Sequence record: NZ_CP023806.1
Source of the DNA: a plasmid
Length of the DNA stretch: 10,647 bases
Direction: 5' to 3' (one strand)
In this document: piece after piece, positions 9,107 to 10,421 of the stretch
Layout of the letters: every line of letters begins with the position of its first letter
How positions within the stretch are numbered: position 1 is the first letter of the stretch
Made by a program: the position numbers and the translations under genes
The notes under the pieces: model-generated
What the model saw: only the letters and a program-made list of their open reading frames with translations
What the model was told of the DNA's origin: nothing
Database searches by the model: none

Positions 9107-9796
9107 ATGGCATTTTATTTACCCTATCTACTCATTTTTGTTAGTATTTCAGGAAGTATTTGGCTCATCTATAAAATTTTTCAAACAAGATATTCATTAA
9201 AAGGCTCTAAAATTCGATTTAAGCGATTTTTCTTTCTTGGCTGTATATTTTCCTTGATAATCGTTTCAAGCGGCTTATTCGGCGTTTTAGAGGGAAATAA
9301 GCGCGTTTCTAGAAGTATTTTATTAGGAAATGTCACTCAAAAGTATGAATCAGCGCGTGATAAAAAGAAAAAAGAGCAAGCATTAGCACAAAAAATGGAA
9401 GAGTTTACCACTTGTTATGAGGAAATGAACGATATTTTTGTGAATCAAGAAAAACGTTTGACGGATAAAAACATGGAAAAACTCACTCGTCTTTATCAAA
9501 ACTTGCCAGAAAAACAGCAAAAAGAGGTTCAAGACAACTATGAGCGAACCAAAAAAGACGTGCAATATGTGAAAGATACGAAAGTGGAAGAAGCTTGTAG
9601 TGATTTATTTGGAGATACAATTCCTTTTTCAACTAGCGAACAAGAACGAAAAGAACGACAACAATCAGTCACATATGAACGCTATGAAATCTTGCTTCAA
9701 CAAGCAATTAACATACAAAATCTGACTAAAAAAGAAACAGCTTTAAATTATTTAAAAAGCGTCAAGGAATGGTTAGATCAGCAACAGCAAAATTGA
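9107..9796 (+). CDS. Hypothetical membrane protein (2 N-terminal TM helices, charged coiled-coil C-terminal domain), translationally coupled to mobB
   Basis: 229-aa ORF. RBS GGGGAG lies at 9095-9100. ATG 9107 is 1 nt after the mobB stop. A strong terminator follows. Confidence 0.55.
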   Translation: MAFYLPYLLIFVSISGSIWLIYKIFQTRYSLKGSKIRFKRFFFLGCIFSLIIVSSGLFGVLEGNKRVSRSILLGNVTQKYESARDKKKKEQALAQKMEEFTTCYEEMNDIFVNQEKRLTDKNMEKLTRLYQNLPEKQQKEVQDNYERTKKDVQYVKDTKVEEACSDLFGDTIPFSTSEQERKERQQSVTYERYEILLQQAINIQNLTKKETALNYLKSVKEWLDQQQQN

Positions 9797-9821
9797 ATTT
9801 GATTGAAATTCATGTTAAACT
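9793..9821 (+). promoter_or_regulatory. Candidate promoter of the antitoxin RNA (-35 TTGAAT 9793-9798, 17-nt spacer, extended -10 TGtTAAACT 9813-9821)
   Basis: Read from sequence. The predicted transcription start near 9828 would give a ~60-nt RNA ending at the terminator T-run. Confidence 0.4.
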
Positions 9822-9827
9822 AAACAT

Positions 9828-9891
9828 GCAAATGTTCAAACATTAGATACACGAAAGCCCCAGAGAGGTCGGATTCTCTGGGGCTTTTTTT
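9828..9891 (+). ncRNA. Candidate antitoxin sRNA (par RNA II-like) of a type I toxin-antitoxin pair
   Basis: A short transcript is predicted between the promoter above and terminator 9857-9891. It contains gttcaaacattagatacac (9834-9852). That is a 19-nt direct repeat (1 mismatch) of 9993-10011, so the RNA is complementary to the toxin SD-downstream and start-codon region. It also overlaps the 3' end of the convergent toxin mRNA. Confidence 0.45.
9857..9891 (+). terminator. Strong rho-independent terminator shared by convergent transcripts
   Basis: 9-bp GC-rich stem gccccagag/ctctggggc (9857-9865 with 9876-9884) is followed by T7 (9885-9891). On the minus strand the hairpin is followed by a U-containing tract (uuucgugu), so weaker termination of the toxin mRNA is plausible. 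Confidence 0.85.
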
Positions 9892-9915
9892 AGGTTGATG
9901 TCGCCTTTACTGATT

Positions 9916-10002
9916 TTACTTCTTGTTTCGGTTATTCAACCAATAACTGAATACAGAGATACAAACTCCTACAAGAAGGGGGCAAATAAACAGTTCAAAC
10001 AT
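9916..10002 (-). CDS. Fst/Ldr-like type I toxin peptide (28 aa: MFELFICPLLVGVCISVFSYWLNNRNKK)
   Basis: Minus-strand ATG at 10002-10000 is preceded by a strong SD, GGAAGGAGG (plus 10011-10019), with an 8-nt spacer. The peptide has a single hydrophobic helix with a P-x-x-V-G motif and a charged tail (NNRNKK), like Fst (APIFVG...charged tail). It lies inside a convergent sRNA-terminator arrangement. The plus-strand ORF 9895-10089 is antisense to it. Confidence 0.6.
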   Translation of the reverse strand: MFELFICPLLVGVCISVFSYWLNNRNKK

Positions 10003-10039
10003 CAGATACACCTCCTTCCAGTCGCAAGACTGTCGGATA

Positions 10040-10084
10040 GGCGACAAGTTATTATACCCTACAAAATTAAATCTGTGTGGCAAT
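10040..10084 (-). promoter_or_regulatory. Candidate toxin mRNA promoter (perfect -10 TATAAT = plus 10051-10056; TTGCCA at plus 10078-10083 is 21 nt away, so the -35 is poor)
   Basis: The predicted start near 10044 puts GUCGCCU at the very 5' end of the toxin mRNA. Confidence 0.4.
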
Positions 10085-10421
10085 TTTAAGTATCTCTTAT
10101 TTCCGGGTTGTTAGGGCTTGCCCTGACCGCCTGTAGGGCGCTTTAAATTCCAGATAAAGTTTTTTATACTAAGACTGTCTTAAAACGGCTTAGACAAGCT
10201 CTTAGAGCCTCAACCCTCCTTTTTGAACAATGGTTTTAGCAAAGGAGCTGGAGGCGACTGCGCAGGTATAATGTGAGAGCGTAGCGATCACACCTTTTTG
10301 GCGACCGTAGGGAGCGAGGTTTTGAATTAGCAGTTTAGAAAAGTTCGCGAACCTGTTTAAAGAAAAAATAATTGTTTTTTTAGGTGGGAAATTTTGTCTC
10401 CCTCTTTTATAATCTTTTTTT

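Follow-up and report, generated by a model that had tools for sequence, protein, structure and literature searches.

The Fst/Ldr family of type I toxins is recognised by a hydrophobic transmembrane helix, a P/D/S/T-XXX-G motif, a conserved Trp and a C-terminus rich in charge (PMC7472228, Weaver). Plasmid stabilisation is the sole verified function of the family, and it has been verified for pAD1 only (PMC7472228). Another described system, Lpt of Lactobacillus rhamnosus and L. paracasei plasmids, comprises a 29-amino-acid (aa) Fst-like toxin and a 74-nucleotide (nt) convergent antitoxin. It has a 24-nt repeat region around the start codon, in which two conserved parts are split by a plasmid-specific stretch, it is predicted to form an upstream helix and a stem-loop, and the small theta plasmids that carry it have it in physical linkage with Rep_3/DUF536 replication genes; rapid amplification of cDNA ends (RACE) and toxicity in E. 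coli support it experimentally (PMC5608710). The subject here is a toxin–antitoxin (TA) locus in a stretch of 10,647 nt (sequence record NZ_CP023806.1, hereafter the window), which is a small Rep_3 plasmid from Enterococcus faecium in circularly permuted form.

The locus is read as an Fst toxin gene with a convergent gene for an antisense RNA, which would work by the par mechanism and, by analogy, in post-segregational killing. The probability of this reading is put at roughly 0.85. The locus represents a commonplace case of the Fst/par class that has been catalogued before; a standard annotation pipeline recognises it, and conceptually it is nothing new. As far as sequence comparison can tell, selection acts on three of its parts: the peptide, the intermolecular complementarity and the hairpin. 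The antisense part is supported because the tail of the small RNA and the toxin start co-vary in eight sequence types, the hairpin has undergone compensatory changes and the positions of the −10 elements are fixed. In this unannotated RNA half the locus agrees with what is expected from descriptions of the family. By analogy with the family, the locus would also have both transcripts with their ends, a toxic product, RNAs of different stability and the capacity to stabilise its plasmid.

A Shine–Dalgarno (SD) sequence followed after eight nucleotides by ATG and a 28-codon open reading frame (ORF) on the minus strand, noted in a preliminary description of the sequence, is indeed present (Table 1). 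The encoded peptide scores 35.4 bits against NCBIfam NF033608 (type_I_tox_Fst, cut-off 26). Pfam PF13955 (Fst_toxin) aligns over its full profile (1–21 of 21, E = 5.9e-7), but its score of 29.7 bits lies below the gathering score of 36. The identical 87-nt coding sequence (CDS) carries the label "type I toxin-antitoxin system Fst family toxin" (WP_111209149.1) in several identical E. faecium plasmids annotated by the Prokaryotic Genome Annotation Pipeline (PGAP)/RefSeq. Residues 4–19 have a mean Kyte–Doolittle hydropathy of +2.5, the tail LNNRNKK one of −2.7, and the motif P8-L-L-V-G12 (PXXXG) lies inside the predicted transmembrane helix. PLLVG, W21 and the NNRNKK tail thus fit the family signature given above (PMC7472228), and the membership of the peptide in the Fst toxin family, anticipated from its single helix, motif and basic tail, is supported by its sequence. 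The suggestion that it might form a distinct subfamily was not borne out, as the standard family model recognises it.

Homologues were taken from 15 diverged plasmid copies and from an exact-match scan of a genome collection with the invariant motif of the toxin 5′ untranslated region (UTR). The scan added loci from Enterococcus sp. HY326, a Vagococcus metagenome-assembled genome (MAG) and Ca. Enterococcus ikei, and a near-duplicate of locus L009 from a Tetragenococcus MAG. A lack of peptide conservation among homologues, together with a lack of toxicity, had been named in the preliminary description as evidence that would speak against a toxin; instead, all 15 distinct homologous CDSs retain the frame, the 28 codons and the TAA stop. 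Synonymous variation is found at codons 2, 5, 11, 12, 17, 20 and 22, and several codons vary synonymously only, with V11 (one Ile), L22 and Y20 as examples. L9, L10, W21, K27 and K28 are invariant, position 8 is P, S or A and position 12 is G or E. Translation starts at ATG, GTG or TTG, always 8 nt from the SD except in L010 (7 nt). Judged by these sequences, purifying selection acts on the toxin ORF.

Two longer frames are also listed as open reading frames, a 64-aa ORF on the plus strand (9895–10089) and a 55-aa ORF on the minus strand starting from TTG at 10083, and the chance that either is the real gene is negligible. The plus-strand frame, dismissed at the outset as the antisense of the toxin gene, has no Pfam match, and in the homologues the stretch free of stops varies between 40 and 97 aa, with the frame shifted by indels. 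The 55-aa frame starts upstream of the conserved −10 of the toxin promoter, where the sequence is not conserved. PGAP annotates the 87-nt CDS alone.

The toxin gene and the putative antitoxin gene cross a bipartite direct repeat in opposite directions, so the entire 5′ tail of the small RNA is complementary to the toxin mRNA. The two 19-nt copies of the main repeat agree at 18 of 19 positions, and the mismatch becomes a U·G wobble in the RNA duplex. Within the window the repeat pattern occurs at these two sites alone (0.01 expected). None of 300 dinucleotide-preserving shuffles of positions 9700–10200 (501 nt) gave 18/19, the maximum being 17, reached once, which places the near-perfect repeat of the preliminary description beyond chance. 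RNAduplex carries the pairing over a 5-nt bulge into a short second block, and the proposed contact between the small RNA and the toxin initiation region, which stands, is therefore bipartite (6 + 19 nt). In the window the whole 26-nt tail pairs with the mRNA from the last G of the SD through codon 7 at −32.7 kcal/mol. The short block is found in seven of the eight sequence types, and both of its copies are altered in L019, the Vagococcus locus (GCAGAA / ACAGAA).

Conservation across the homologues is a mosaic. The toxin 5′ UTR, the hairpin loop and the C-terminal codons are nearly invariant, and the start-codon segment is variable, with eight very different sequence types among 18 distinct loci. 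For alignment A1, each RNA II tail was joined to the toxin mRNA of its own locus, and a mismatched recombinant, L008, was excluded. Throughout A1 the tail upstream of the hairpin is of the same type as the start-codon segment of that locus. The intermolecular helix has 12 of its 19 pairs changed on both sides, with 91% of cells paired. With all five helices of the structure taken together, the paired cells amount to 95.6%, compared to 35–43% when the 3′ partners are slid by 1–3 columns, and the observed covariation score is attained in none of 500 shuffles. Cognate duplexes calculated with RNAduplex range from −22.9 to −31.6 kcal/mol and duplexes between types from −3.7 to −20.9 kcal/mol. Each cognate duplex is stronger than any formed with a different repeat type and is equalled by non-cognate loci of its own type, and the whole-tail duplex amounts to −29.8 to −37.0 kcal/mol in all types. 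These sequence comparisons show co-evolution of the two repeat copies.

An antitoxin transcript is predicted from the plus strand. The promoter elements proposed for it are present and match the consensus at 8 of 12 positions, which is below the threshold of a generic promoter scan. The −35 overlaps the TGA stop (9794–9796) of an upstream 229-aa ORF, and TG at 9813–9814 makes an extended −10, TGTTAAACT (9813–9821). As the scan listed neither this promoter nor that of the toxin, positional conservation was relied on instead. An extended −10 of the form TGnTAnnnT is found at a constant distance from the hairpin in all eight locus types despite unrelated upstream flanks, and the −10 of the toxin promoter is likewise fixed in position in all eight although the flanking DNA is unrelated. 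Six nucleotides past the RNA II −10 there is a conserved G, a layout as in pAD1 RNA II, and the start of the RNA is placed at 9828 on this ground. The predicted RNA folds with −27.3 kcal/mol (z = −6.1 against shuffled sequence).

The small RNA would end at a hairpin with a perfect 13-bp stem, at which the terminator scan calls a plus-strand terminator. The stem covaries at 5 of its 13 pairs, with 98.3% of cells paired across the homologues, and both an intermediate with a mismatch (L013) and a repaired form (L014) are found. The loop, GAAUCCGAC, is nearly invariant. No YUNR U-turn motif is present in the loop AUCCGACC (in RNA II, GGUCGGAU); since the motif is not universal in the Fst family (PMC7472228), its absence does not exclude membership. 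The toxin transcript crosses the hairpin on the other strand, where the 3′ flank is UUUCGUGUAU, with UUU followed by CGUGUAU, and the terminator scan made no call there. The idea of a shared bidirectional terminator has in its favour the hairpin itself, its plus-strand T7 and its covarying pairs, and is weakened for the toxin strand, where the U-tract is poor.

The hairpin lies 58 nt past the stop of the upstream ORF (9107–9796) on the same strand and would end that transcript too. It could then be a mere terminator of this 229-aa ORF or of the mob operon, the repeat and the short ORF having arisen by chance, and the silence of the generic promoter scan on both proposed promoters would fit such a view. 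This is very improbable: the block of promoter, repeat, hairpin and toxin is kept beside unrelated upstream genes (L010–L015, L018–L020), the repeat is above chance and co-varies, and the ORF matches the Fst family model. The comparative data contradict the mere-terminator explanation.

Table 1. Coordinates of the features of the Fst/par-like locus and of the replication initiator gene in the window.
Feature	Position	Strand	Details
Predicted RNA II promoter	9793..9821	plus	−35 TTGAAT 9793–9798, 17-nt spacer, −10 TAAACT 9816–9821
Predicted antitoxin RNA (RNA II-like)	9828..9892	plus	about 65 nt: 26-nt single-stranded 5′ tail, terminator hairpin and U7
Short repeat block GCAAAT	9828..9833	plus	5′ end of RNA II; copy at 9982–9987 (toxin codons 6–7)
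Main direct repeat, RNA II copy	9834..9852	plus	19 nt, GTTCAAACATTAGATACAC
Main direct repeat, translation-initiation copy	9993..10011	minus	last G of SD, spacer, AUG, codons 2–3
Hairpin	9854..9891	both	13-bp stem 9854–9866 / 9875–9887, 8-nt loop, plus-strand T7 9885–9891
Predicted toxin mRNA (RNA I-like)	9848..10045	minus	about 198 nt, both ends inferred
Toxin −10 TATAAT	10051..10056	minus	conserved in all homologues (TAAAAT in L010)
5′ arm of 5′–3′ helix	10039..10046	minus	UGUCGCCU, extreme 5′ end of toxin mRNA
3′ arm of 5′–3′ helix	9899..9906	minus	AGGCGACA on mRNA, 10 nt past stop codon
5′ stem-loop of toxin mRNA	10013..10037	minus	CAGUC-UUGC-GACUG (10032..10019), extended by UCC (10037..10035) / GGA of SD (10015..10013)
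SD GGAAGGAGG	10019..10011	minus	8-nt spacer tgtatctg, then ATG
Toxin CDS	9916–10002	minus	28 aa, MFELFICPLLVGVCISVFSYWLNNRNKK; ATG 10002..10000, TAA 9918..9916
Rep_3 initiator gene	1–933		preceded by 22-bp iterons 10484–10578

The predicted 198-nt toxin mRNA folds with −64.3 kcal/mol (z = −4.9 against shuffled sequence), its salient elements being a 5′–3′ helix, a 5′ stem-loop and the terminator hairpin. Conservation starts exactly at GTCGCC (10045) in all homologues, and the 5′ UTR (GUCGCCUAUCCGACAGUCUUGCGACUGGAAGGAGG) is almost invariant in the alignment of diverged copies. Candidates for the −35 of the toxin promoter are poor (TTGCCA, 10083..10078, at 21 nt and CACACA at 17 nt), and the −35 region is not conserved. 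The 8-bp helix between the 5′ end of the mRNA and the sequence past the stop codon (10046..10039 / 9906..9899) was found as an inverted repeat and is present in both the minimum free energy (MFE) and the centroid fold. It is kept in all homologues with 97.9% of cells paired; its changes are one-sided (wobble) only, and none is compensatory. The 5′ stem-loop abuts the SD and in the MFE fold sequesters it partly, by three bases; in the centroid fold the SD pairs alternatively with CCUUC in codons 8–10. The stem-loop sequence is invariant in 18 diverged copies and hence displays no covariation.

Taken as a par-type module, the locus would operate as follows. Transcription of the minus strand would yield an mRNA of about 200 nt, with its 5′ end tucked into a helix with the post-stop sequence and its 5′ stem-loop touching the SD, from which a membrane peptide of 28 residues would be translated that has one helix, the PXXXG motif, the conserved Trp and a tail of basic residues. 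From the opposite direction, the extended −10 promoter would produce a plus-strand RNA of about 65 nt ending at the strong intrinsic terminator. The two RNAs would pair at the hairpin and across the translation-initiation region, probably beginning at their complementary loops, and ribosomes would be kept from binding. Going by pAD1 par, the antisense RNA would be shorter-lived than the mRNA of the toxin, and upon plasmid loss the toxin would be translated and growth would stop, which amounts to post-segregational killing.

Natural variants affect both the peptide and the pairing. Gly12 of the PXXXG motif (window positions 9967–9969) is replaced by Glu on two codon backgrounds, in L004, L005 and L007 (GGA to GAA) and in L009/L021 (GAG). 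By tblastn identity bands, about 232 plasmid records fall into the Glu-allele band, compared to 33 for the window type and about 60 for the other Gly-bearing type. The motif Gly is reported to be essential for the toxicity of Fst-pAD1 (PMC7472228), and the commonest copies may encode an attenuated toxin. L008 (CP063596.1, pIN-3-1_03; locus positions ~353–569) is a natural recombinant that combines an RNA II promoter and tail of the window type with a toxin start and N-terminus of a 3-kb-plasmid type (L011). Repression by this antitoxin may be poor, unless the overlap at the 3′ end is enough. Given the Gly-to-Glu alleles and this mismatched recombinant, not every copy need be functional.

Several points weigh against the interpretation of the locus as a working par-type module. 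The commonest alleles have Glu in place of the motif Gly. The tail–start duplex of L008 has −13.2 kcal/mol over the compared segments and −17.4 kcal/mol with the tail at full length, compared to −23 to −37 kcal/mol elsewhere. DNA-level gene conversion could also keep matched direct repeats identical. The toxin promoter has no usable −35, neither proposed promoter was listed by the generic scan, and the toxin-side terminator has a tract of three U only. For the 5′–3′ helix and the 5′ stem-loop the evidence is conservation only, and no more than three SD bases fall within the stem-loop. A search of the whole window with Rfam at gathering thresholds reached no family. The literature search found no transcript, toxicity or stability data for this locus: the exact peptide had no match in papers, and the E. 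faecium transcriptome and Grad-seq papers name no Fst/par locus of this kind.

The same module could also serve a role other than addiction, be it stress- or phage-triggered growth arrest, or could be a decaying, attenuated remnant that is carried along with the origin block. The approximately 232 records with Gly-to-Glu in PXXXG and the existence of a recombinant with a mismatched antitoxin would agree with this, as would the restriction of verified plasmid stabilisation to pAD1 (PMC7472228) and the conserved, approximately 300-bp non-coding origin-side block with which the module travels. Such a role is nonetheless unlikely. The window allele retains both Pro and Gly, and the ORF length, the Trp and the basic tail are conserved in the presence of synonymous changes. 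The plasmids are very small, and maintenance is an obvious benefit to them. The repeat copies are kept matched in eight types; by implication, repression is still under selection and the toxin is still worth repressing. A par-type addiction module remains the preferred interpretation.

Plasmids of enterococci, Vagococcus and Tetragenococcus share a near-invariant 5′ UTR, loop and toxin C-terminus, yet they carry at least eight matched pairs of tail and initiation region that are mutually non-complementary. It is conceivable, if rather doubtful, that the repeat segment is a fast-evolving specificity determinant and that its types constitute a set of orthogonal addiction codes. In that event, co-resident plasmids could each be stabilised without cross-protection, recombination could create mismatched modules such as that in CP063596.1, and toxin-attenuating changes could become selectable, for example the recurrent Gly12-to-Glu, now the commonest allele.

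Three plasmids of about 20–21 kb, L027, L028 and L029 (NZ_CP091580.1, NZ_CP032309.1 and NZ_CP065530.1), contain the approximately 10-kb plasmid as a complete or partial head-to-tail dimer and have the rep, mob and Fst genes in duplicate; they are either true multimers or assembly artefacts. The two module copies in each are identical and thus uninformative on the co-residence of different repeat types. Some of these plasmids have bacteriocin 32 beside the FtsW/RodA gene, where the window has an ISEfa4 insertion.

The module is present in 461 plasmid records, which include 3-kb plasmids with just four annotated features, and at least 30 E. faecium plasmids share the 321 bp around the locus at 100% identity. 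The best matches of the window are E. faecium plasmids of 11.6–11.8 kb at 98.9% identity. Annotation of the toxin CDS is inconsistent over hundreds of clinical E. faecium plasmids, many identical records having "none" or just the neighbouring hypothetical protein, and an antitoxin feature at the locus is absent from the plasmid records fetched (the PLSDB table contains no RNA genes). The practical value of the present analysis is in annotation, as neither RNA is covered by an Rfam model. The alignment (18 distinct loci, eight pairing types, compensatory changes in duplex and hairpin) could seed such a model. Biologically, the locus would give a further function in maintenance to small mobilizable Rep_3 plasmids in hospital E. 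faecium. The genome-collection scan also yielded three low-coverage contigs whose par loci are identical to those of E. faecium plasmid types, in assemblies of Dechloromonas sp. H13 (L022, a contig with a coverage of 0.55), Brevundimonas sp. (L023, 3276 bp) and Vibrio olivae (L024, 620 bp); the type in L023 and L024 is that of the 3.2-kb plasmid. These proteobacterial occurrences are most likely sequencing contamination and do not indicate true hosts.

The circular permutation of the window is apparent from the iterons and repeats, which adjoin the Rep_3 start across the window ends. Just upstream of the Rep_3 gene there is an apparent theta-type origin with 4.4 copies of a 22-bp iteron (TTTATAGGCATGAAATTATCTG, 10484–10578), and a 12-bp repeat is present there in 3.6 copies (10401–10443). 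Between the toxin promoter and these origin repeats lies a non-coding block of about 300 bp (10095–10400), which is co-conserved with the TA module in otherwise different plasmids, including the 3.2-kb plasmid of rep_cluster_1763 (L012), and is not conserved in the E. faecalis copy L015. The block holds a hairpin (10119–10140) and the promoter-like sequence GGTATAAT; an Rfam scan of it gave no match. The other genes of the window encode a DUF536 protein, a helix-turn-helix (HTH) protein, FtsW/RodA, the TnpA and TnpB proteins of ISEfa4, a C47 peptidase, MobC and a relaxase. The FtsW/RodA/SpoVE-family gene and the staphopain-like C47 peptidase with a proregion (2069–3292 and 5719–6873) are unusual cargo for a 10-kb mobilizable plasmid.

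Among known systems, pAD1 par of Enterococcus faecalis (Fst, RNA I, RNA II) offers the layout to which the locus had been likened from the start. Both have a convergent toxin mRNA and an antisense RNA of about 65 nt (both RNAs being predicted ones in the window) with a shared hairpin, and in both, direct repeats across the start codon give 5′ complementarity. A helix between the mRNA 5′ end and the post-stop sequence (5′-UH) and a 5′ stem-loop by the SD (5′-SL) occupy matching positions. The RNA II extended −10 of pAD1, TGTTATACT-N6-G, shares with the window the common form TGTTAnACT-N6-G, and both peptides have PXXXG in a single transmembrane helix and a charged tail. The two have almost the entire layout in common, with the parts of a pAD1-type par locus (L017) following one another in the order seen here, and the differences are minor. 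Fst of pAD1 has 33 aa, compared to 28 here, has Val where the window peptide has Trp, and has an acidic tail, whereas that of the window peptide is basic. Unlike pAD1 par, the window locus has repeat blocks of 6 + 19 nt with a 5-nt bulge, a hairpin loop devoid of the YUNR U-turn motif, three U in the toxin-side tract (five in pAD1), a 5′ stem-loop that covers only 3 nt of the SD and a toxin promoter that lacks a usable −35.

Homology to pAD1 par is not detectable at the RNA level. The Rfam models RefA9 (RF02844, RNA II) and RefB11 (RF02848, RNA I) score 88.1 and 53.6 bits on the pAD1-type par locus L017, and neither matches the window even at E ≤ 10. Permissive Rfam scans gave sub-threshold matches to SpF66_sRNA and fstAT and spurious terminator-driven leader or miRNA matches. 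The fstAT match (RF01797) has 22.7 bits against a gathering threshold of 72 and is located elsewhere than RNA II. The best match of the toxin strand is the Streptococcus family SpF66_sRNA (RF02442; 26.7 bits, E = 1.4e-4, below the gathering threshold of 42). Its alignment spans the 5′ stem-loop, the SD/AUG, the 5′–3′ helix and the terminator, where the 3′ flank GGGGCUUU-GUGU is shared as well, but the middle of the model is unaligned.

The closest non-enterococcal peptides, at 52–56% identity, are encoded by Fst loci of staphylococcal plasmids (for example S. aureus pPS00078.1A.1 and S. saprophyticus pSSAP1). These loci share with the window the ...HWLNNR... C-terminus, the GGAAGGAGG SD, a 5′–3′ helix flanking the ORF, a direct repeat of 14–21 nt at the start codon with a second copy beyond the hairpin, and an extended −10 (TGTTATAAT) for RNA II, and they give the same sub-threshold SpF66_sRNA and fstAT matches. 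They differ in the length of their toxins (31 aa), in their repeat and UTR sequences and in the host genus. Lpt, compared by its published description, has the same design as the window locus, and the Rep_3 and DUF536 genes to which it is linked are also found in the window.

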